Under the pieces are notes generated by a model. The model worked only from the letters and a program-made list of their open reading frames with translations. It ran no database searches and was not told the DNA's origin. Made by a program: the position numbers and the translations under genes. Shown in pieces: positions 4,277-35,654 of a stretch of DNA of 64,000 nucleotides; positions within the stretch are counted from its first letter, which is position 1; every line of letters starts with the position of its first letter. This DNA is from a virus, in the IMG/VR virus record IMGVR_UViG_3300047157_000073, positions 32,001-96,000 of that record; one strand, 5' to 3'.

Positions 4277-4306
4277 TTGACAAAAGATGTTTTAGTATGT
4301 TAGTCT
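4277..4306 (+). promoter_or_regulatory. sigma70-type early promoter upstream of alkB-like gene
   Basis: CCC-TTGACA, 18 bp spacer, TGn-TAGTCT; same family as the other early promoters. Confidence 0.55.
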
Positions 4307-4406
4307 AGCATCATGAAGTTATATTCTATAAGGAATTATTAGTATATTAACAAATACTAATCTAGACAAATAATGGACAAAAGTTAAATACTAGGTTTTT
4401 TTTCTT

Positions 4407-4414
4407 TATAAATA
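4407..4414 (+). promoter_or_regulatory. T4-type late promoter upstream of alkB-like gene
   Basis: TATAAATA. Confidence 0.7.
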
Positions 4415-4423
4415 TAATCAGAT

Positions 4424-4555
4424 ATGTGTTGGAATAGACATCCCTCACTTTCATTCCAAATTGAAAGTGTTCCTTATGTCACATGACTAACACATGGATA
4501 AGTCATTCACAAGGCTGTGAGTGATATAACTATTTCGTGGGAGGAAATACGAAAT
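4424..4555 (+). other. structured 5' leader RNA (three consecutive stem-loops)
   Basis: Nested stems ATGTGTTGG/CTAACACAT, GACAT/ATGTC, CACTTTCA/TGAAAGTG; hairpin TCATTCACA/TGTGAGTGA; hairpin ATTTCGT/ACGAAAT enclosing the SD. Confidence 0.55.
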
Positions 4556-5784
4556 GGGAAATATTTTATTAAACCTTAGATACCTATTAGCACCTGTGTT
4601 AATCATAGTTGCTGGTGCAGGTGTCTTAATTGGTGGCATAATGGCATGGCTAGGAGTAGTTTTACTATTCGTAGGTTTACTTGTCGATATTGCTACTAAA
4701 TTCGAAACATCAGGCGTAGGATATGATGAAAATGGAGATAGTTTAGGTTGGGCAAGTTTCCAAAACTTAACTATGTACTTCATGTTACCAATCTTTGTAC
4801 TGTTTCAACTAGTCATGGCGTGGAGAGTATCTACATACATGTCACTAGGTGGAATGGAAGGCGAAGTCGTAATGTCAATCATACCTGGTCTATTAGTCAT
4901 GCACGAAGGCATAACAGGTCTTAACTTAATCGGTGCAACATTATCATCTGGTATCTTTATTGGAATCGGAATCATCTATGGTCATGAGTTATCTCATACT
5001 AAAGGATTTGGATTCGTAATATCAAGAACTATGATGGCGTTATCTGGTTCAGCACATTTCTGTTACGCTCATGTATACAACCATCATCTAGAACTTGCAA
5101 GTGAAGATGACCCTGCTACTGCTCCTAGAGGGCGTACAATATATGGTCACTATCCACTATCATATCTAGGTCAGTCTAAATTCTTATTCAATATGGAAAA
5201 AGAAAGACTAGCTCGTATGGGTGTATCACTTTATCTCTTGGCAAAATCGTTGGATAAGAGGATATCTAATGGCAGTGCCAACAGTTGCATTATTCTTTGC
5301 AGCTGGTGGTTGGATAGGAATGGCAGTACTAGCAACAATTTGGGGAATCTCAAACTTTGAGCTAGAAGCACTTAACTATCTAGAACACTACGGATTAATT
5401 CGTGTGAAAGACCAACCAATTGATTACAGACATAATTGGGATAATTCAACAGCTTTTACTGCATGGTTCTTTATTGAAATCGGCAGACAAGCAGACCACC
5501 ATGACAGAGGTGAAACTCATTTCTGGGAATTGGAAAATGTTGGTTGCCCAAATACAGGTTGGGGATACTTTGTAGTATTCTTTATCGCTCTCGTACCGCC
5601 AATCTGGCATTGGTACATGCGTAAAAGACTAGCTGCTTGGGATACACATTTTGCAACAGATGAAGAACAAGCAATTGCTAGAAGAATCAACAAAGAAGTT
5701 GGTTATGAAGGCACACCATTTGTTGGAGATGTATTACAAGACGCTGGTAATGTAGACTTAGGTCTTCGTTCAGCTAGAAAGTAA
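4554..5784 (+). CDS. alkB: AlkB-like membrane di-iron alkane monooxygenase (one frameshift near 5220-5235)
   Basis: Multiple TM helices; His boxes HELSH, HVYNHH, NYLEHYG, RQADHH; DPATA motif; ORFs 4554-5360 and 5221-5784 join. Confidence 0.85.
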
Positions 5785-10573: not shown

Positions 10574-10602
10574 ATTATAAACTTTCAAACAAGGTTTGTC
10601 AA
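10574..10602 (-). promoter_or_regulatory. perfect-consensus sigma70 promoter on the minus strand, no downstream ORF
   Basis: Reverse complement reads TTGACA-17 bp-TATAAT. Confidence 0.75.
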
Positions 10603-19666: not shown

Positions 19667-19696
19667 TTGACAAAAGGTGTTCCTATCATGTATAAT
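19667..19696 (+). promoter_or_regulatory. sigma70-type promoter, near-leaderless transcript
   Basis: TTGACA-18 bp-TATAAT, 11 nt before ATG 19708. Confidence 0.75.
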
Positions 19697-24215: not shown

Positions 24216-24616
24216 TATACAATGGAAGCAGGAGCAGATGTTTGAAGTTCTTTTAAAAGAACCAGATGACTTCCTAAAGATTAGAGAAACTTTATCTCGC
24301 ATAGGAGTTGCTTCTAGAAAAGAAAGGAAACTATATCAGTCTTGCCATATACTTCATAAACAAGGTAAGTATTACATAGTACACTTTAAAGAATTATTTG
24401 CACTTGATGGTAAGGATACAAACTCTATCAGAAAATGATATTGCTAGAAGAAATACAATAGTTAAACTTCTAAGTGATTGGGGTTTAGTTGCAATGAAAG
24501 GTACACCAGAACCGATTGCACCATTAAGTCAAATTAAAATTATTTCATTCAAAGAAAAAGATGAGTGGATGTTAGAAACTAAATATAACATAGGAAAAAA
24601 GAAAGAGGTAGAGTAG
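24205..24616 (+). CDS. regA: translational repressor RegA (frameshift near 24420)
   Basis: DDFLKIRETLSRIG, LYQSCHILHKQGKYYIVHFKELF, RRNTIVKLLSDWGL. Confidence 0.95.
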
Positions 24617-25026
24617 TGGCATATTCAGATAAAGTTTTAGACCATTATGAGAATCCTAGAAATGTGGGAACACTTGATAAGGATGATTCATCAGTTGGTA
24701 CAGGTATGGTCGGAGCACCTGCTTGTGGCGATGTAATGAAACTTCAAATCAAAGTAAATGATGATGGTATCATAGAAGATGCTAAATTTAAAACTTATGG
24801 ATGTGGTTCAGCAATCGCATCATCAAGTCTATTAACCGAATGGGTTAAAGGACAAAGTGTAGATGAAGCTTTAAAAATTAAAAATAGTGACATCGCAGAA
24901 GAACTTGCACTACCACCTGTAAAAATTCATTGTTCAGTCTTGGCAGAAGATGCTATCAAAGCTGCACTTGCAGACTATAAAGGAAAACAAGAATCAATAG
25001 GTAAATGGCAACCCAACTCAGAGTAA
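24616..25026 (+). CDS. iscU: Fe-S cluster scaffold IscU
   Basis: YSDKVLDHYENPRNVG, GAPACGDVM, GCGSAIAS, LPPVKIHC. Confidence 0.96.
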   Translation: MAYSDKVLDHYENPRNVGTLDKDDSSVGTGMVGAPACGDVMKLQIKVNDDGIIEDAKFKTYGCGSAIASSSLLTEWVKGQSVDEALKIKNSDIAEELALPPVKIHCSVLAEDAIKAALADYKGKQESIGKWQPNSE

Positions 25027-25033
25027 ATACATT

Positions 25034-26449
25034 ATGAAGAACTTTCAATCGTTCATCACAGAAGAAAATGTGAATGATGGTGATATACAAATTGCTGTCT
25101 TAACTAAAACATCTTCAAATAAAGAAGAAGTGGTTGCAAACCAACTTAAAAAATATTCAGATAAAAATAAAATTCCATGTCATATTGTTAACACAAGAGA
25201 GGCATGGGTATCAGATAACGATTTAGAAAAAGGTACTTTAACTATATCAAATGTAGAGGGAGAAAGACTAGACTTTGATATACACAAAACAATAGTGTTT
25301 GTTCGTGCTGGAGTATTAGAGGATGAAGTAGGACTTGCATTACTTTCTACTTTTGAAAAGGCAGGTGCATTCATGATTAACAATCGTGATGGTATGTTAA
25401 CTTGTGATAACAAAATGACATCTTATATAACATTTAATCAAAATGGAATACAAACACCAAAAACATCATTAATTAATAATGAAGATTCGGTTGAAGATGC
25501 ACATAAAAGAATCGGTGGTAAGTTTCCTGTTATCATAAAAACAATTACAGGTACACAAGGTATTGGTGTATCAATAGTAAATGATTTTAAAAGTATGATA
25601 TCTGTTGTTCAATCATTATGGAAGTTTGGTGCTGAACTTTTAGTACAAGAATATTTAGAAATGCCATTTGATGTTAGAACTATTGTAGTGGATGGTGTAA
25701 TTATTGCCTCTACTAAAAGAGTAAGACCAAAAGAAGATTTTCGTTCTAATAGACATAGAGGAGCAGAAACATTTCCTTACAAACTTTCTGATGATGAAAA
25801 GGAATCAATATTAAATGCATATCGTTCTACAGGTGCATACATGGTTGGAGTAGACCATTCAATCGTAAATGGTAAAACATATATCTTAGAATGTAATGGT
25901 TCACCTGGTATCGGTTCTAATTTTGGAAATGGTGATGGTAAATTAACAACCAATGAAAGACTAATTGAAAAAGTAGTAACTCATATTTCAAAAGTTAAAA
26001 GTAGATTTGTAGGTTCAACACAAGTTGCTGGATATGTAGAGAGATTAGAGATAGTAGGACTTGGGCCATTTCGTGCTAAGTTTGATACAGGTAATGGAAC
26101 TAAAGCATCCATGTTTCATGTAGACAAATTAGAAATAAAAGGTAAGATGGCTAAATGGGAAAGAGGTGGTAAAAAATTTACTAACAATATTGTTGGTGTA
26201 TCTAAACCTATGCATGTAGACCAAATAGATAAAAGACCAATAGTATTAGTAGATATAAAATTTAATAACAAATTATATAAAGATGTTCCAATAGGATTAA
26301 CCACAAGAGATTCTAAAAGTACATTTTTAATTAATAGGGAATTACTCACTAGATTAAAAGTTGCAGTAAACCCCGACAGGAAATTCGTTCTATCTAGTTA
26401 TATAGAGCGAGGTGATAACAATGATGAAGACTATAGGGACCCAAGATGA
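25034..26449 (+). CDS. RimK-family ATP-grasp ligase fused to a retropepsin-like protease domain
   Basis: FPVIIK..GTQGIGV, QEYL, FRSN.HRG, ECNGSPG; C-terminal AKFDTGNG; N-terminus MKNFQSFITEE. Confidence 0.88.
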   Translation: MKNFQSFITEENVNDGDIQIAVLTKTSSNKEEVVANQLKKYSDKNKIPCHIVNTREAWVSDNDLEKGTLTISNVEGERLDFDIHKTIVFVRAGVLEDEVGLALLSTFEKAGAFMINNRDGMLTCDNKMTSYITFNQNGIQTPKTSLINNEDSVEDAHKRIGGKFPVIIKTITGTQGIGVSIVNDFKSMISVVQSLWKFGAELLVQEYLEMPFDVRTIVVDGVIIASTKRVRPKEDFRSNRHRGAETFPYKLSDDEKESILNAYRSTGAYMVGVDHSIVNGKTYILECNGSPGIGSNFGNGDGKLTTNERLIEKVVTHISKVKSRFVGSTQVAGYVERLEIVGLGPFRAKFDTGNGTKASMFHVDKLEIKGKMAKWERGGKKFTNNIVGVSKPMHVDQIDKRPIVLVDIKFNNKLYKDVPIGLTTRDSKSTFLINRELLTRLKVAVNPDRKFVLSSYIERGDNNDEDYRDPR

Positions 26450-26714: not shown

Positions 26715-29210
26715 ATGAACTTTTATACAAATGTAACACCATGGGGTAATACCCTGCTTGTCAGAGAGTATGTAAATGGAGAAAGGATTAATCGAAAGGT
26801 TAAGTATTCCCCTACACTATTCTGTAAAGTAATCAAAGAAACTAAACATAAAACTTTAGATGGTCAATATGTTACACCTGTAAAACATAATACAATCAAA
26901 GAAGCAAAAGAATGGTTAAAGTCTTATGAAGACCAACCACATCTTATTTTTGGTAATACTACATTTCAATATAACTATATTGCTGATGAATATCCTAATC
27001 ATGTAAAGTGGGATGTTGATAAAATTCTTATTGTAACGATTGATATAGAAGTTGCATGTGAAAATGGTTTTCCAAACCCAGAAGATGCAATTGAACCTTT
27101 ACTATCAATCACAATTAAGAATCATCAAAACAAACAAATATTAGTTTGGGGTACAGGTGAATATAAAAACACAAGAGAAGATGTCACTTATGTTAAATGT
27201 AAAAATGAAAAAGAATTGATACAAGAGTTTTTATCTTTTTGGCAAAAGAATCAACCAGATATTATTACAGGCTGGAACACAGAATTTTTTGATATACCAT
27301 ATGTTTGTAATCGTATTAAAAATTTATATGATGAAAATGAAGTGAATAGATTATCACCATGGGGTAATGTATCAGGTAGAGAAATTTATCAAATGGGTAG
27401 AAAACATCAAGTCTATGATATACAAGGTGTATCACATTTAGATTATTATGATTTGTATAGGAAGTTTACATATACCAATCGTGAGAGTTATAGACTTGAC
27501 CATATTGCCCATGTTGAACTCGGTGAGAGTAAAGATGATAATCCATACGAAACATTCCGAGAATGGTACTTAAAGGACTTCCAATCGTTTATTGACTACA
27601 ATATACAAGATGTAGAAATCGTTGATAGACTAGAAGATAAAATGAGATTGATTGAACTATGTCTAACTATGGCTTATGATGCCAAGGTTAATTATATGGA
27701 TGTACTTGGTTCAGTTAAATATTGGGATATATTAATTTACAACGAACTTCGAAAGAAAGGTATTGTTATACCACAAAAAATTCAAAGAAACAAAACTGAA
27801 AAGTTTGAAGGTGCATATGTAAAAGAGCCACAAGTTGGTTTACATAATTGGGTTATGTCTTTTGATTTAAATTCACTATACCCACATCTGATTATGCAAT
27901 ATAATATTTCACCAGAAACATTAGTTGCAAATGAAAAAGTTAAAAACATGTCTGTTGAGAAAATGCTAAATAAAAGTGTAGATACATCTGTTTTAAAAGA
28001 TGCGACTATGACACCAAATGGTGCTTTGTTTAAAACAACTCAAAAAGGATTTCTACCTGAACTCATGCAAAAGATGTATGATGACAGAGTAAAATTCAAA
28101 CAGTTAATGTTGGAGGCAAAGAAAGATTATGAAAGAACTAAAGACCCAAAACTTAAAAAAACGATTGCAAAATTTAACAACATCCAAATGGCTAAAAAGA
28201 TTTCTCTTAATAGTGCGTATGGTGCTATTGGTAATAACTGGTTTAGGTATTATAATATTTTGGTTGCTGAAGCAATTACTACCAGTGGTCAATTTGCTAT
28301 TAGATATATTGAACATTCTCTTAACGGGTATCTTAATAAAATACTTGAAACCAATGGAGAGGATTACATTATTGCATCAGATACGGACTCGGTGTATATT
28401 TGTTTTGACAAACTTGTCAGCAAAGTATTCAAAGGAGAACAAGATAAAAGAAAAATCGTTGACTTCTTGGACAAGGTCGCTACAGATAAAATCGAACCTT
28501 TTATTGATAAGTCTTATCAAGAACTTGCTGAATATGTAAATGCCTATGAACAAAAGATGCAGATGAAAAGAGAAGTGATTGCAGACAAAGGTATTTGGGT
28601 TGCAAAGAAAAGATATATTTTAAATACACATGATGTTGAAGGTGTTCGTTATAAAGAACCTAAATTAAAAATTATGGGTGTTGAAGCTGTGAAGTCATCA
28701 ACCCCTGCACCTTGTCGTGAAAAAATTAAACAAGCATTAACAATTATAATGAATGAAGATTCAAAAGTGCTAAATAGTTTTATACAAGATTTTAGAAAAG
28801 AATTTATGACATTAAAACCAGAACTAGTTGCGTATCCACGCTCTGTAAATGGATTAAACAAATGGACTGAATCACATAATCTATTTAAGAAAGGAGCACC
28901 GATACATTGTAAAGGTGCAATATTATATAATCATCTTTTAAAGGAGAAAAAATTACAAGGTAAGTATCCTTTTATACAAGAAGGTGATAAGATTAAATTT
29001 TTACATATGAAAATACCAAACACATATCAATCAACATCTATATCATTTATGACTAAGTTACCAAAAGAATTAAACTTACATAGTATAGTAGATTATGATA
29101 TGCAATTTGAAAAGTCATTTATAGAACCATTAAAATTTATTACAGGTATTATACAATGGCAGATAGATGGTAGTTATGGAACACAAGGAACATTAGAGGA
29201 GTTTTTCTAA
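26715..29210 (+). CDS. gp43: family B DNA polymerase gp43
   Basis: DIE exonuclease motif, SFDLNSLYP, KISLNSAYG, DTDS, KKRY. Confidence 0.99.
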   Translation: MNFYTNVTPWGNTLLVREYVNGERINRKVKYSPTLFCKVIKETKHKTLDGQYVTPVKHNTIKEAKEWLKSYEDQPHLIFGNTTFQYNYIADEYPNHVKWDVDKILIVTIDIEVACENGFPNPEDAIEPLLSITIKNHQNKQILVWGTGEYKNTREDVTYVKCKNEKELIQEFLSFWQKNQPDIITGWNTEFFDIPYVCNRIKNLYDENEVNRLSPWGNVSGREIYQMGRKHQVYDIQGVSHLDYYDLYRKFTYTNRESYRLDHIAHVELGESKDDNPYETFREWYLKDFQSFIDYNIQDVEIVDRLEDKMRLIELCLTMAYDAKVNYMDVLGSVKYWDILIYNELRKKGIVIPQKIQRNKTEKFEGAYVKEPQVGLHNWVMSFDLNSLYPHLIMQYNISPETLVANEKVKNMSVEKMLNKSVDTSVLKDATMTPNGALFKTTQKGFLPELMQKMYDDRVKFKQLMLEAKKDYERTKDPKLKKTIAKFNNIQMAKKISLNSAYGAIGNNWFRYYNILVAEAITTSGQFAIRYIEHSLNGYLNKILETNGEDYIIASDTDSVYICFDKLVSKVFKGEQDKRKIVDFLDKVATDKIEPFIDKSYQELAEYVNAYEQKMQMKREVIADKGIWVAKKRYILNTHDVEGVRYKEPKLKIMGVEAVKSSTPAPCREKIKQALTIIMNEDSKVLNSFIQDFRKEFMTLKPELVAYPRSVNGLNKWTESHNLFKKGAPIHCKGAILYNHLLKEKKLQGKYPFIQEGDKIKFLHMKIPNTYQSTSISFMTKLPKELNLHSIVDYDMQFEKSFIEPLKFITGIIQWQIDGSYGTQGTLEEFF

Positions 29211-29314
29211 TGGCAGGTAAAGGAGATAAAAGAAGACCAATGAAAGTACCACAAGATGATTATGAAAAAAATTGGAATAGAATATTTGAAAAGAAAAAGA
29301 AAGAAAAAAAATGA
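29210..29314 (+). CDS. small basic hypothetical protein (34 aa, absent from the ORF track)
   Basis: MAGKGDKRRPMKVPQDDYEKNWNRIFEKKKKEKK; GAGGAG RBS; overlaps the gp43 stop and the next start. Confidence 0.65.
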   Translation: MAGKGDKRRPMKVPQDDYEKNWNRIFEKKKKEKK

Positions 29315-30501
29315 AATATAAACCATATAATTTAAAAGATGTTGTTAAGGCTTCTGAACAAGAAAAGTTTACAGTAGTATCTACCTTTGCTGGTGGCGGT
29401 GGTAGTTCCACAGGTTATCGTTTGGCTGGTGGTAAGATATTATGTGTGAATGAATTCGTTGAACAAGCCATAAACACATATAAAGAAAACTACCCAGACA
29501 CACCTGTACTACCAGATGATATAAAAAAACTTACTGCAGAAGATTTTAACAAGTATGGTGACATAGATATCTTTGATGGTTCACCACCATGTTCAGCATT
29601 CTCTGTATCTGGTGCAATGGTACAAGGCGGACACTCTAAAGGTTGGGGTCAAACTAAGAACTATTCTGATGGTAAGAAGATTGAGAATATAGAAGATTTA
29701 TTTTTTGAGTTTTTAAGAGTTGCAAAAGATTTAAGACCTAAAGTTATTGTTGCTGAAAATGTAAAAGGATTAACTGTAGGAGAGGCAAAGAAATATTATT
29801 ATAAAATTACAAATACATTTGAAGAAATAGGATATGATGTATCATCTAAAGTTTTAAATTCTGTTCACTATGGTGTTCCACAAACTAGACAAAGAACTAT
29901 CTTTATTGCTGTTCGTGAAGATGTAACACAAGAGATAGGACTAACATTTATGAATATTGCTAGTATCTTCCCAGATGAAAGTAAAGATGTTGTCACACTA
30001 GAAGATTGTTTAAGTGATGTAGAAGTAGATAGAAAAGAAGCAGATGAACTAACAGAAAAATTTAAAAATAAATCTCATTATGAAACTTGGTTGAAAATGC
30101 CAGATGACCCAGACAAGGTTGAAACAGGTTGTGATTATCATCCTAAAGGTCATCACTTTAATATGAAAAAAACATCTAGACATAAACCTGCTCCAACAAT
30201 TACAGCAACAGGTGGGGCTATGCATTGGACTGAACCTAGACCATTTACAATTAAAGAAACAAAAAGAATAATGTCATTACCTGATGATTTTAAATTAACA
30301 GGTAGTCATAGTCAACAGTCAGAAAGATGTGGCAGAATGGTACCACCTCTAATGATGAAAGCAATTGCAGAATCAATTTATGAAAAAGTATTGAAACCAT
30401 ACTATAAAAAAAAACCTAAAGAAATAGGTGGAAGAAAAGATGGTTTAGAACCCACTCGATATAATGATTGGGAATCGAAAGGAAGATGTATAGATTTTTA
30501 A
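29311..30501 (+). CDS. C5-cytosine DNA methyltransferase-family enzyme (motif X Asn->Arg) with C-terminal DUF1674-like tail
   Basis: FAGGGG, GSPPC, ENV, QTRQR, CGRMVPP; tail EIGG...EPTRYNDWESKGRCIDF. Confidence 0.92.
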   Translation: MKYKPYNLKDVVKASEQEKFTVVSTFAGGGGSSTGYRLAGGKILCVNEFVEQAINTYKENYPDTPVLPDDIKKLTAEDFNKYGDIDIFDGSPPCSAFSVSGAMVQGGHSKGWGQTKNYSDGKKIENIEDLFFEFLRVAKDLRPKVIVAENVKGLTVGEAKKYYYKITNTFEEIGYDVSSKVLNSVHYGVPQTRQRTIFIAVREDVTQEIGLTFMNIASIFPDESKDVVTLEDCLSDVEVDRKEADELTEKFKNKSHYETWLKMPDDPDKVETGCDYHPKGHHFNMKKTSRHKPAPTITATGGAMHWTEPRPFTIKETKRIMSLPDDFKLTGSHSQQSERCGRMVPPLMMKAIAESIYEKVLKPYYKKKPKEIGGRKDGLEPTRYNDWESKGRCIDF

Positions 30502-30502
30502 T

Positions 30503-31642
30503 ATGAAATATTCAAAGTATAATTTAAAAGATGTAAAAGAAGCATCGGCACAAAATAAGTTTAGTGTCATATCTACCTTTGCAGGTGGTGGTGGTTCATC
30601 TACAGGTTATAGACTTGCAGGTGGAAATATACTTTGTGTAAATGAGTTTGTAGAACAAGCAAGAATTACATATAAAGAAAATTACCCAGATACAAAAATA
30701 CTACCTGATGATATAAAACAACTAACAGGTAAAGACTTTTTAAAAACTGCTGGAATACAAAAAGGTGAACTAGATATATTAGATGGCTCACCACCATGTT
30801 CTGCTTTTTCAATGTGTGGAACACTAGGACAGTCTGGTTCTAAACATTCTGATGGTTGGGGTAAAACTAAAAAGTATTCAGACAATAAAATAGTAGAAAA
30901 TATAGAAGACTTATTTTTTGAGTATCTTAGAGTTGCAGAAGAAATAAAACCAAAAGTAATCATAGGAGAAAATGTTGCAGGTCTTCTCGCAGGCGAAGCA
31001 AAATTAAAGCTAAATGAGATTGTAAACACATTTGAAAAAATTGGTTATGATGTATCATATAAGATTTTGAATGCATCACATTTTGGAGTACCACAGTCTA
31101 GAAGGCGAGTTATCTTTATAGCAGTCCGTGAGGATGTCACAGAGGCCATAGGATTGACATTTATGAACATTGCTAGTATCTTTCCACAAGAGAATAAAGA
31201 AGTAGTAACAGCAGGAGAGGCACTAGAGGATTTAGAATTAGATAAAGAAGAAGTTAAATGGTGTACAGATACATGGTTAAGTTCCGCACATTACAAGGAT
31301 ACAGCATCTTTAATGCCAGATGACCCAGATAAAGTATTAGGTGGAAATGACTTTCATCCTAAAGGATGGCATTTCAATGTTAAGAAAATGTCTAGACATC
31401 ATCCAGCCCCAACAATTACGACAAATGCAGATGTTTGTCACTTTATTGAAAAAAGGCGGTTGACAATTCGTGAAATAAAGCGTATAATGGCTTTACCAGA
31501 TGATTTTATAGTGACTGGTTCTATGTCACAGAAAATAGAAAGATGTGGTAGAATGGTACCCTCATTAATGATGAAGGCCATTGCTGAATCTGTCTATAAA
31601 AATGTAATACAACCTTATAATTGGGTTTGTGGAATGGAGTAA
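30503..31642 (+). CDS. second C5-cytosine DNA methyltransferase-family enzyme (motif X Asn->Arg)
   Basis: FAGGGG, GSPPC, ENV, QSRRR, CGRMVP; close paralogue of 29311. Confidence 0.92.
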   Translation: MKYSKYNLKDVKEASAQNKFSVISTFAGGGGSSTGYRLAGGNILCVNEFVEQARITYKENYPDTKILPDDIKQLTGKDFLKTAGIQKGELDILDGSPPCSAFSMCGTLGQSGSKHSDGWGKTKKYSDNKIVENIEDLFFEYLRVAEEIKPKVIIGENVAGLLAGEAKLKLNEIVNTFEKIGYDVSYKILNASHFGVPQSRRRVIFIAVREDVTEAIGLTFMNIASIFPQENKEVVTAGEALEDLELDKEEVKWCTDTWLSSAHYKDTASLMPDDPDKVLGGNDFHPKGWHFNVKKMSRHHPAPTITTNADVCHFIEKRRLTIREIKRIMALPDDFIVTGSMSQKIERCGRMVPSLMMKAIAESVYKNVIQPYNWVCGME

Positions 31643-31647
31643 AAATT

Positions 31648-32352
31648 ATGTCTAAAAATTATGACTTTACCTTTGCCCAACGGGAAGAAGGTTTTGATGA
31701 CCATATAGAACATTCGATTCGTGGATATACAAACTTACTAGAAGATGTAATTAGTCTATCTAGAAACTTTGTAGAAGATGAAACAAATGTTGTTGATATT
31801 GGTTGTTCAACAGGAAAATTAACAGAGGCCTTTGTAAAAGGTAATCAATCATTTTGTAAGTATGCTAATTATGTTGGTATAGAACTTGCTCCTAGTTTCT
31901 TCACAGAACTTGACGCAAGACATGAAAGAATGAAAAATGAATACTATTGGGCAAATGTTAATTTTGAAAAGAAAGATGTTCGTAATTACAAATTTGAAAA
32001 TTGTAGTTTAGTAACATCAATATTTACATTACAATTTATGCCTAGAAAAGATAGATTTAATGTATTACAAAATATATACAATGGACTAAATCATGGTGGT
32101 GCTTTTATCTTCGCAGAAAAAACAGTTTGTGATGATTCAAGATTACAAGAAATGATAACTTTTAATTTTTATGATTATAAAAGAAAACATTTCGAAGCAT
32201 CAGATATTTTAGAAAAAGAAAAAACATTAAGGAACATGTTAAAACCTAATACTTGGAAAGAGTTAGAAGGTATGTTAGAATGTGCTGGATTTAAAACTGC
32301 ACAACCATTCTGGCGTAATCATATGTTCGTTGGTGCAATTGCAATTAAGTAG
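31648..32352 (+). CDS. cmoA: CmoA-like carboxy-SAM synthase / SAM-dependent transferase
   Basis: FDDHIEHSIRGY, DIGCSTG, FTLQF, GGAFIFAEK, AGF..A..FW. Confidence 0.8.
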   Translation: MSKNYDFTFAQREEGFDDHIEHSIRGYTNLLEDVISLSRNFVEDETNVVDIGCSTGKLTEAFVKGNQSFCKYANYVGIELAPSFFTELDARHERMKNEYYWANVNFEKKDVRNYKFENCSLVTSIFTLQFMPRKDRFNVLQNIYNGLNHGGAFIFAEKTVCDDSRLQEMITFNFYDYKRKHFEASDILEKEKTLRNMLKPNTWKELEGMLECAGFKTAQPFWRNHMFVGAIAIK

Positions 32353-32361
32353 GGTACAATT

Positions 32362-33380
32362 ATGAATGACTTTTTAAAAGATGTTATCAAAGAAACGGGT
32401 AACGAATATGCAGGAATAGTTTCAGATGGTGTAGAGGCTGGAGATGTAGAGAACTTTATAGATACAGGTTCTCATATATTTAATGGATTAATCTCTGGTT
32501 CACTCTATGGTGGACTTCCACAAAATAAGATTACTGCTCTGGCAGGAGAAAGTGCAACAGGTAAAACTTTCTTTCTCATGGGTATGGTTAAAAACTTTCT
32601 AGACCAAAATCCAAACTCTGGTGTTGTATACTTTGAATCAGAAAGTGCAATCACAAAACAGATGGTTGTTGATAGAGGTATAGATGCAAATAGAATGGTG
32701 ATAATGCCAGTAACAACTGTACAAGAGTTTAGACATCAAGCATTAAAAGTATTAGATAGATACATGCAACAAGATGTAGATATCGAAGACCACTCTTTAT
32801 ATGTTTAGATTCACTTGGTATGTTATCAACTACAAAAGAAGTAGAAGATACAGAGGCAGGAAAAGAAACTAGAGATATGTCAAGAGCACAAATACTCAAA
32901 GCTGCATTTAGAGTTTTAACTTTAAAACTTGGAAAAGCAAAAGTACCAATGGTTGTAACCAATCATACATATGATGTAATTGGTTCAATGTTCCCAACTA
33001 AAGAAATGGGTGGTGGTAGTGGATTGAAGTATGCTGCTTCAAGTATCATATATCTTTCAAAGAAAAAATTTAAAGATGGTACAGAAGTAATTGGTAATAT
33101 CATTCATTGTAAGAATCATAAGTCAAGATTGACTATGGAAAATAAAATGGTTGATGTTTTACTAACTTATGACAAAGGACTTGATAAGTATTATGGACTA
33201 CTTGACTTGGCAGTGGCACATGGAATATTTAAACAAGTATCCACTCGTATTGAATTACCAGATGGTACTAAACAATATGCTAAAACAATTAACAATGACC
33301 CAGAAAAATATTTCACAAAAGAGGTTATGGAAAAATTAGAAGAAGCTGCATTAAAAGAATTTAAATATGGAAACGAATGA
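32362..33380 (+). CDS. uvsX: RecA-like recombinase UvsX (frameshift near 32785)
   Basis: [31 protein letters not shown]. Confidence 0.95.
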
Positions 33381-33922: not shown

Positions 33923-34214
33923 TATTAAAGAATCATATGTTTTTGTAGAAAGTAAAGCACAAGACCAAACTTGTATTGGTATCAAGGGTGGAAAGTTTGC
34001 TGGTGTAATTTATAAGTATGGAAAAGTTTCACTTGGTGAAGAAACAGAAGATGGTAATATGCCATTTAAATTTGAATTTGATATCATAGATAATAATTCA
34101 GTGCCGAGAGAAAATTTTGGAGATGATTGGTCAAATTTAATAGGTGATATTTTAATAGATATAATTGAGGAACAATATGCAGAATCAGACAATAGAAAGG
34201 ACAACTCTAACTAA
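33915..34214 (+). CDS. conserved hypothetical protein at the gp40-like position
   Basis: GVIYKYGKV, F.FDI, IGDILIDII; immediately upstream of gp41. Confidence 0.7.
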   Translation: MSNIKESYVFVESKAQDQTCIGIKGGKFAGVIYKYGKVSLGEETEDGNMPFKFEFDIIDNNSVPRENFGDDWSNLIGDILIDIIEEQYAESDNRKDNSN

Positions 34215-35654
34215 TCTTCTAAACAACGAAGAATATTCTAGAAAGGTTTTACCATTTATAAAACCAGAATACTTTGATGTTAAAGAAGAAAGAATAATCT
34301 TTGATGAGATACAAAAGTTTGTAGACAAGTATAATAAGATACCAACTCAAACATCATTAGAAATAGAAGTTAGTACAAGGAAAGATTTAAATGATGTAGA
34401 ACATAAAAAGATTGTTGAGATAATTAAAACTCTCAAAAAAGAAACTATAGATTTTGATTGGTTAGTAGATACAACAGAAAAGTTTGTCAAAGATAAAGCA
34501 ATCTATAATGCAATCGTAGAAGGTGTTGGTATTATAGATGGTAAGTCTAAAGATAAAACACCAGAAGCAATCCCACACATTTTAACAGAGGCACTTGCAG
34601 TATCTTTTGACAATTCTGTTGGACATGATTATCTAGAAGATTCTGAATCAAGATTTGATTACTATCATCATAAAGAAGAAAGGATACCATTTGATTTAGA
34701 ATTCTTTAACAAGATTACTAAAGGTGGACTTCCACCAAAGACTTTAAATATTGCATTGGCAGGAACAGGTGTAGGTAAATCATTGTTCATGTGTCATCAA
34801 GCTGCAAACTGTTTATCACAAGGAAAGAATGTTTTATATATTTCATTAGAAATGGCAGAAGAAAGAATTGCAGAAAGAATAGATGCCAATATGATGAATA
34901 TCAGTATACCAGATTTACATGACTTACCTAAGAAAATGTTTGATGATAAGATTACAAGATTACAAAAGAAAGCAAAAGGTAAATTAATTATCAAAGAGTA
35001 TCCAACTGCATCCGCACATAGTGGTCACTTTCAGAGGACTACTGAAAGAACTTGCAATTAAGAAATCTTTCAAACCAGATATTATCTTTATTGATTATTT
35101 AAACATCTGTGCATCAAGTAGATTTAAGGCAGGCAGTTCTATGAACTCTTATACAATCATTAAATCTATTGCAGAAGAACTCAGAGGACTTGCAGTAGAA
35201 ACAAATGTACCTATTATGTCTGCAACACAAACGACAAGAAGTGGATTCTCTAATACAGATGTTGGACTAGAAGATACATCAGAAAGTTTTGGATTACCTG
35301 CAACGGCTGACTTAATGTTTGCATTGATATCTACAGATGAACTAGAAGAACTGAATCAAATCTGTGTCAAACAATTAAAGAACAGATACAATGACCCTAC
35401 AATGAATAAGAGATTCATCATTGGAATAGATAGAAACAAAATGAAACTATTTGATGTAGAACTCAAAGCACAAGATGAACTTGTAGACCATGGTCAATAT
35501 GTTACACCTATTGCAGATAAAGGACAAGGATTCGGTAAAGGACACAGGCCCTAATCTATCTGGTAGACCAGATGATGTAAATCCATTCTCAAAAACAGGT
35601 CAAGAACAATCCAAAGAAGACAAATATGACAAATTCTCTAAGTTAAAAGTTTGA
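34177..35654 (+). CDS. gp41: replicative helicase gp41 (frameshifts near 35030 and 35545)
   Basis: AGTGVGKS, SLEMAE, IKEYPT, IDYLNI, SATQTTR, ESFGLPATAD, QLKNRY. Confidence 0.96.

Follow-up and report, generated by a model that had tools for sequence, protein, structure and literature searches.

The closest characterized relative of the locus analyzed here is the CmoA-CmoX-CmoY system of Synechococcus phage S-B43 (Yang et al., Nat Commun, December 2025; PMC12783734). In that cyanophage, SpCmoA converts S-adenosylmethionine (SAM) and prephenate into carboxy-SAM (Cx-SAM) with a kcat of 2.33 per s, and SpCmoX places the carboxymethyl group on the C5 position of cytosine in GC motifs, accepting Cx-SAM but not SAM. 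The locus under study consists of two tandem genes for DNA cytosine-C5 methyltransferase (C5-MTase) homologues, CmoX1 and CmoX2, followed by a CmoA gene. It lies in a 64,000-nucleotide (nt) stretch of viral DNA (the window), which represents bases 32001-96000 of the 123,703-base linear IMG/VR contig IMGVR_UViG_3300047157_000073, with a GC content of about 31% and a completeness of 71% as estimated by CheckV.

The published system provides the chemical frame for this comparison. In the crystal structure of SpCmoX (8YF3), R350 touches the carboxylate of the cofactor and stands in for N304 of HhaI, and the R350N mutant is inactive with either cofactor. The product, 5-carboxymethylcytosine (5cxmC), stops HhaI cleavage. 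A neighbouring ligase resembling Asn synthetase, CmoY, amidates 5cxmC with glycine, and native S-B43 DNA yielded the glycine amide while 5-carboxymethyldeoxycytidine (5cxmdC) was undetectable. No CmoB homologue is reported for S-B43. From IMG/VR and other sources the authors collected 5,615 candidate CmoX (defined by SPPC plus R350) and 4,257 CmoA, and they state that the sequence specificities of further CmoX are still to be determined (PMC12783734). Its main text mentions neither paired or duplicated CmoX nor DUF1674; it does recount the engineered enzyme M.MpeI N374K, in which a basic motif-X residue lets a C5-MTase use Cx-SAM. A preliminary description of the window, made from the sequence alone, had mentioned that a related cyanophage system had been reported; S-B43 is that system, and the chemistry is hence not new.

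Comparison with S-B43 makes it very probable that the window carries a CmoA-CmoX DNA hypermodification cassette of the same kind, marked by a pair of transferases, by the lack of CmoY and by a captured C-terminal tail. Three intact open reading frames (ORFs) of the plus strand follow the DNA polymerase gene gp43, as the preliminary description had it: CmoX1 (29311-30501, 396 amino acids), CmoX2 (30503-31642, 379 amino acids) and CmoA (31648-32352, 234 amino acids from its ATG). The genes are tightly spaced: CmoX1 begins 100 nt after gp43, 1 nt separates its stop from the ATG of CmoX2, and only 5 nt lie between the end of CmoX2 and the ATG of cmoA. Minus-strand ORFs within the region measure only 52-115 amino acids.

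Both transferases are readily assigned. A profile search matched PF00145 to CmoX1 (1.5e-59) and CmoX2 (2.8e-57), and TIGR00675 matched both. The top match of each in the PDB was 8YF3, spanning the whole catalytic domain (CmoX1, 1e-147, residues 5-362; CmoX2, 4e-138, residues 5-370), and identity to SpCmoX by tblastn was 61% for CmoX1 and 58% for CmoX2. Both copies keep FAGGGG, SPPC, ENV, QxRxR (QTRQR and QSRRR, respectively) and the motif-X sequence G-R-M-V. The catalytic S91-P92-P93-C94 is invariant across the CmoX alignment. R342 of CmoX1 (codon 30334-30336, plus strand) and R350 of CmoX2 (AGA codon 31550-31552, plus strand) both pair with R350 of SpCmoX, and R342 is also aligned with M.HhaI N304 and with the Asn in the GN motif of M.HaeIII. 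By homology, these Arg residues would contact the Cx-SAM carboxylate. The alignment thus bears out what had been read from the letters alone, namely intact C5-MTase motifs in both genes and Arg codons at 30334 and 31550, and it places the Arg opposite the motif-X Asn, on which the proposal had been made to depend. Among 122 CmoX ORF pieces, 107 read GRMVP, four printed copies of a third clade (see below) read GRMVA, nine end before the motif and two were not inspected; the motif-X Arg was present in every copy inspected.

The third gene was likewise recognized correctly as CmoA-like. TIGR00740 covers the protein over its full length (5.7e-36 to 7.6e-36, 124 bits), and the E. coli CmoA structures 4GEK and 4IWN match full length (4GEK at 2.6e-26). 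Identity is 58% to SpCmoA over 230/231 residues and 60-61% to the full-length homologue of Synechococcus phage S-CRM01. The NCBIfam equivalog cut-off of TIGR00740, 193.3 bits, lies above window CmoA, above SpCmoA (115.6 bits) and above the S-CRM01 homologue (119.1 bits), and therefore excludes the whole phage clade. Passages of a review (PMC10491745) give no CmoA residues, and window CmoA was judged by comparison with the assayed SpCmoA. That comparison removes an earlier worry over a divergent region reading EKEKTLRN: SpCmoA has DKEKELRD at this place, and KEKxLRxMLKPNTW is invariant in the three phage CmoA compared, so that the region is a feature of the phage clade and no defect. An alternative start at TTG 31621 would give 243 amino acids. 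However, alignments with homologues begin no earlier than residue 14 of that form, while the protein read from the ATG matches SpCmoA along its entire length, and the true start is therefore probably ATG 31648.

Taken together, these homologies define a probable pathway. CmoA would make Cx-SAM from SAM and prephenate, and CmoX1 and CmoX2 would follow the standard C5 mechanism, in which attack of the SPPC Cys on C6 precedes transfer of the group to C5. With Arg in place of the motif-X Asn binding the cofactor carboxylate, a carboxymethyl group would be transferred, giving phage DNA that contains 5cxmC, a base expected to block restriction. In the lack of CmoY the base would stay free 5cxmC, and the two diverged transferases would cover different sequence contexts. 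The route from Cx-SAM to 5cxmC, as proposed in the preliminary description, is well supported by homology, biochemistry and structure having been published for the S-B43 homologues.

The occurrence of the pair was traced in IMG/VR with a pattern scan based on the CmoX alignment, which gave 509 loci confirmed by tblastn; all counts of relatives given here come from the best 80 of these plus the window. A gene of the CmoX1 clade was present in 38 records. CmoX2 followed in 33 of them, and the other five contigs end no more than 291 nt past CmoX1. In the window the two copies are 66% identical in amino acids and 69.5% in nucleotides. In a tree built from 88 distinct CmoX sequences, CmoX1 and CmoX2 came out as clades of 24 rows each, both with 100% support in the Shimodaira-Hasegawa-like approximate likelihood ratio test and with stems of 0.31 and 0.28, respectively. 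The node joining CmoX1, CmoX2 and other CmoX lineages formed a polytomy in this quick tree. Monophyly of CmoX1 plus CmoX2 is compatible with the data (approximately unbiased test, p 0.737; the constrained tree was 18 log-likelihood units better), and an old duplication in place is possible.

Both copies appear to be maintained. Ratios of nonsynonymous to synonymous substitution (dN/dS) relative to the window copy ranged from 0.07 to 0.25 for CmoX1 (27 valid pairs) and from 0.05 to 0.18 for CmoX2 (26 pairs); these ranges leave out pairs with dS of 0.02 or less and the records L034 and L035 (about 1.1), in which ungapped extraction had run across an indel. The low ratios indicate that both genes were kept as working genes. 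No tracts of near-identity were seen between CmoX1 and CmoX2 of the window, which argues against recent gene conversion. Amino acid identity between the copies falls to its minimum, 30-43%, at codons 226-270. Of 388 alignment columns, 55 hold fixed differences between the clades, most densely just behind the PC motif (10) and over columns 241-270 (8), a pattern that fits different DNA contacts of the two enzymes. We consequently read CmoX1 and CmoX2 as old paralogues held together under purifying selection. Since the copies diverge and yet are retained together, they most likely cover different sequence contexts, although this is the weakest step of our interpretation.

It is possible, though we consider it doubtful, that the two enzymes are instead redundant, recognizing the same motif and serving dosage or timing, or that one of them is regulatory, with no second context involved. 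All catalytic motifs are present in both copies, and the variable region shares GLTFMNI, MPDDPDKV and HPKGxHFNxKKxSRHxPAPTIT. Moreover, SpCmoX with its GC-only motif illustrates that one enzyme can modify densely, and a promoter consensus conserved inside CmoX2 hints at separate timing. Set against these points are the 34% protein divergence, the long stems, the purifying selection and the lack of signs of gene conversion, and redundant copies in phages are not usually retained as these two are. The divergence is also greatest in the variable region and in the loop that follows the catalytic Cys, and a second tandem pair, described below, has a clearly different variable region.

The promoter-like element is a perfect TTGACA-17-TATAAT of the sigma-70 type at 31460-31488 (plus strand), 160 nt before the cmoA ATG. 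The 64-kb window has three perfect TTGACA-N16-18-TATAAT sites where 0.16 would be expected, and none of 100 shuffles reached three; the other two lie at 10574-10602 (minus strand) and 19667-19696 (plus strand). Across 20 CmoX2 genes, the site matches the consensus at 12 of 12 positions in 13, at 11 in five and at 10 in two, while the amino acid specified between the hexamers differs from gene to gene (R/L/N/T/S/K) and the equivalent place in CmoX1 scores 8-10 of 12. A scan of 28900-32700 for promoter-like sites in general gave 22 against 19.0 (standard deviation 4.7) in shuffles, which is no excess, and two terminator-like sites in this interval are both on the minus strand. The internal site may drive cmoA separately.

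Several related contigs hold other arrangements. In L047-L052 a different tandem pair is followed by CmoA: the second copy is 70% identical to CmoX1, and the upstream copy, 50-55% identical to CmoX2, carries GRMVA and a distinct variable region and forms a third clade. A single CmoX of the Arg type lies between gp43 and uvsX in L055-L057, L071, L078, L080, L082, L084 and L085. No CmoA was present in the stretch examined in these contigs, of which L078, L080 and L082 cover little or nothing past CmoX; the Cx-SAM for such single-CmoX loci would have to come from the host or from another part of the phage genome. In L034 an ammonium transporter gene (4284-5558; PF00909, 9e-97), maybe an auxiliary metabolic gene, is placed between CmoX1 and CmoX2.

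Four loci carry beside CmoX an ORF of about 166 amino acids with the amino-methyltransferase motifs EPCRGTGSF and NPPF and a match to phrog_799, 'DNA methyltransferase' (3.9e-31): L006 (2460-2957), L025 (3294-3791), L173 (5001-5498) and L175 (5001-5495). In the first three it is inserted between CmoX1 and CmoX2, and apart from this ORF L006 and the window share 99-100% identity. We considered whether this protein could be an amino-carboxymethyltransferase, which is unlikely, as CmoX accompanies it in only 4 of 18 loci; it is probably a mobile ordinary methyltransferase. It nonetheless deserves mention, since Yang et al. state that they found no N6 or N4 candidates associated with CmoA (PMC12783734).

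The second distinguishing feature concerns the end product. A tblastn search of the window and the 123.7-kb contig with SpCmoY and two nearer homologues gave nothing better than an E value of 0.98, and neither a genome-wide search with SpCmoY nor the PF00733 profile produced a match in the contig, while the profile scored 54.7 bits with SpCmoY and 42.9 and 24.3 bits with the CmoY of relatives. CmoY occupies the junction between gp43 and CmoX1 in 28 of the 35 records that show this junction; its identity to SpCmoY is 44-48% in most and about 22% in L035 and L041. In the window and in six relatives (L006, L007, L009, L010, L021 and L046) the interval measures about 100 nt and holds no CmoY. Since L008 (with CmoY) and L009 (without it) adjoin in the CmoX1 tree, the ligase is polymorphic among very close relatives. 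The lack of CmoY in the cassette therefore leads us to predict free 5cxmC, and not the glycine amide, as the final base. The preliminary description had pictured the carboxyl as available for further decoration, and this is known for relatives bearing CmoY, whereas no ligase was found in the 123.7-kb contig.

Alternatively, the cassette could work as proposed and its 5cxmC be amidated by a ligase encoded elsewhere, either in the missing 29% or so of the genome or by a RimK-like ATP-grasp protein, whose gene (25034-26449; PF08443, 2.2e-31, with a C-terminal extension of about 140 residues) lies 2.9 kb upstream. The prevalence of CmoY among relatives and the exclusive recovery of the glycine amide from native S-B43 DNA (PMC12783734) lend this idea some weight. 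Yet in relatives CmoY always lies between gp43 and CmoX1, the very interval that is reduced to 100 nt here. In relatives and in Methylophilales phage Melnitz, homologues of the ATP-grasp gene precede gp43, and one also occurs in Pelagibacter phage Mosig, all independently of CmoX. As a stand-in for CmoY this protein was rejected: it co-occurs with CmoY (L019, L024, L027, L031 and others), and it is present in Melnitz, Mosig and L092, which are free of CmoX and CmoA. It therefore behaves as a backbone gene and not as a part of the cassette. Overall, we consider amidation by a ligase elsewhere improbable and retain free 5cxmC as the predicted product.

That CmoX1 and CmoX2 are ordinary SAM-dependent enzymes making 5-methylcytosine, with CmoA serving tRNA modification or SAM depletion, is very improbable, for nothing specific speaks for it beyond the generic PF00145 and TIGR00675 matches and a CmoA score under the equivalog cut-off, whereas SpCmoX, 58-61% identical, takes Cx-SAM only, its R350N mutant uses neither cofactor, all CmoX copies inspected carry the Arg, and S-B43 is reported to lack a CmoB homologue (PMC12783734).

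The third distinguishing feature is the tail of CmoX1 (30397-30501, plus strand; residues 363-396 plus the stop). The fusion noted in the preliminary description is real: PF07896 (DUF1674) matches residues 366-396 at 4.5e-14, with 53 bits against a gathering score of 23.5, over profile positions 21-50 of 50, so that just the conserved C-terminal motif of the family is present. In a genome search of the 123.7-kb contig the tail was the sole PF07896 match (55.7 bits). It is found on 17 of the 38 CmoX1 genes, the window included, and three others are cut by the contig end; the tails differ at few residues and retain GGRKDGLEPTRY(N/S)DWExKGRCIDF. DUF1674 resembles SDHAF4, and SDHAF4-family proteins bind the flavoprotein subunit of succinate dehydrogenase. 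In the collection of papers searched, none linked DUF1674 with phages.

The origin of this tail can be traced to the same genomic slot. Stand-alone phage proteins of 58 amino acids (e.g., P0014) have their last 26-27 residues 96-100% identical to the tail, sharing the end KEIGGRKDGLEPTRYNDWExKGRCIDF. In ten contigs (L086-L095) whose gp43 is 89-95% identical to that of the window, the stand-alone gene is the sole match between gp43 and uvsX, and this slot holds no CmoX or CmoA. At the nucleotide level the window tail and the 3' end of the stand-alone gene are near-identical, starting at AAAGAAATAGG and running to the stop codon. The junction falls at an A-rich tract, and the piece of about 100 nt lies precisely after the 'KPY' with which tail-less CmoX1 genes end and before the CmoX2 ATG. 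While the stand-alone gene has an N-terminal part of its own, the window keeps the 3' end alone, in frame after 'KPY'. The match in DNA and the shared slot therefore identify the tail, to judge from these comparisons, as a captured fragment of the small stand-alone gene of the gp43-uvsX slot, a clear instance of a small adjacent gene being captured in the manner of an exon. Searches of cellular genomes recovered just the generic C-terminal motif, at 69-88% identity, in proteobacterial assemblies. We note that the gp43-uvsX slot is a hot spot of variable cargo and that the presence of the entire cassette varies within this group of phages, as L086-L095 illustrate.

The surroundings of the cassette are those of a T4-like replication module. 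Upstream, in order, are genes for the gp45 sliding clamp, the gp44 clamp loader, a 2-oxoglutarate (2OG)-Fe(II) oxygenase, gp62, a NifU-like protein, the RimK-like ATP-grasp protein and gp43 (26715-29210, plus strand, an ORF of 831 amino acids), which forms the left border of the variable slot. The NifU-like Fe-S cluster assembly protein (24616-25026) matches phrog_8429 at 6.2e-43. The right border is uvsX (32362-33380, plus strand), with RecA matches on both of its pieces, followed by another 2OG-Fe(II) oxygenase, an ORF of 99 amino acids and gp41. Two of these genes are broken by single bases: uvsX by a 1-nt deletion relative to L008, near 32782/32783, and gp41 (34165-35554) by a 1-nt insertion relative to L089, near 35032. 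These indels reflect either sequencing or assembly error or a defective genome, and all three cassette genes are intact. By tblastn, gp43 is closest to that of Melnitz (64%), with cyanophages at about 55%. CmoA matches came from 69 phage records, neither Melnitz nor Mosig among them, and megablast of the 3-kb cassette region against the phage collection gave no match.

A number of considerations weigh against the reading of a working cassette with two specificities and a free end product. All steps for this phage rest on homology. CmoA falls below the NCBIfam equivalog cut-off, though the assayed SpCmoA scores lower still. With a contig that is about 71% complete, a ligase could sit in the missing part, and the broken uvsX and gp41 mean that the contig sequence is not error-free or that the genome is defective. 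The counts of relatives derive from the 80 most similar of 509 loci and so describe near relatives only. Finally, different specificities of the two enzymes are a prediction, much of the variable region being common to CmoX1 and CmoX2, and SpCmoX recognizes just a 2-bp GC motif, which leaves unexplained why two enzymes should be needed.

A bolder interpretation, to which we give little credence at present, would extend these patterns to a marine T4-like lineage in which the two CmoX recognize different motifs, the ligase was lost, and virion DNA bears 5cxmC, free and negatively charged, at sites of two kinds. The tail, instead of a recombination scar, might in addition be functional, for example by binding the host SdhA flavoprotein or by delivering an SdhA-binding peptide. 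If true, free 5cxmC would be an end state undemonstrated in native phage, S-B43 having shown the glycine amide only. Independently of this interpretation, the conserved and diverged CmoX pair in one operon offers a ready-made comparison for CmoX specificities. Similarly, near-identical contigs with and without CmoY, together with slots holding DUF1674 only, are suited to tests of the amide step and of the cassette against host defences.

The Cx-SAM and 5cxmC chemistry is thus already known, and what is particular to this locus is the conserved CmoX pair, the lack of a ligase and the captured DUF1674 tail. The cassette mainly widens the known range of CmoA-CmoX, to a group of marine T4-like phages that are uncultured and have a polymerase closer to that of a Methylophilales (OM43) phage than to those of cyanophages. 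Among the more distant systems, E. coli CmoA shares the fold, aligned over its full length, and by homology the same Cx-SAM synthase reaction. It is nevertheless distant (96 bits by phmmer), its KRSMLEN corresponds to KEKTLRN in window CmoA, as in SpCmoA, and the window product would feed a DNA transferase and not CmoB. M.MpeI N374K is an engineered enzyme that uses Lys and acts at CpG, whereas the phage enzymes are natural and use Arg, and the one that has been characterized acts at GpC.

Nearer to the window is S-CRM01 (HQ615693.1), which has an adjacent cmoA-cmoX pair in its replication module and, like the window, no ligase; its CmoX is 57-59% and its CmoA 60% identical to the window proteins, and both are annotated merely as methyltransferases. 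It differs in having a single CmoX, in the order A-X, and in a position between gp62 and regA and not after gp43. S-B43 itself shares with the window the adjacent and co-oriented genes, the T4-like phage type, SPPC with the R350-equivalent Arg, and proteins 58-63% identical to those of the window. However, gene order is X1-X2-A in the window and A-Y-X in S-B43, and the cassette of the former is placed between gp43 and uvsX, that of the latter after primase-helicase and pyrophosphatase genes. The window has two transferases where S-B43 has one, CmoY was found in S-B43 only, and the DUF1674 tail marks the window CmoX1. The phage backbones also differ, that of the window being nearest to Melnitz, unlike that of cyanophage S-B43.

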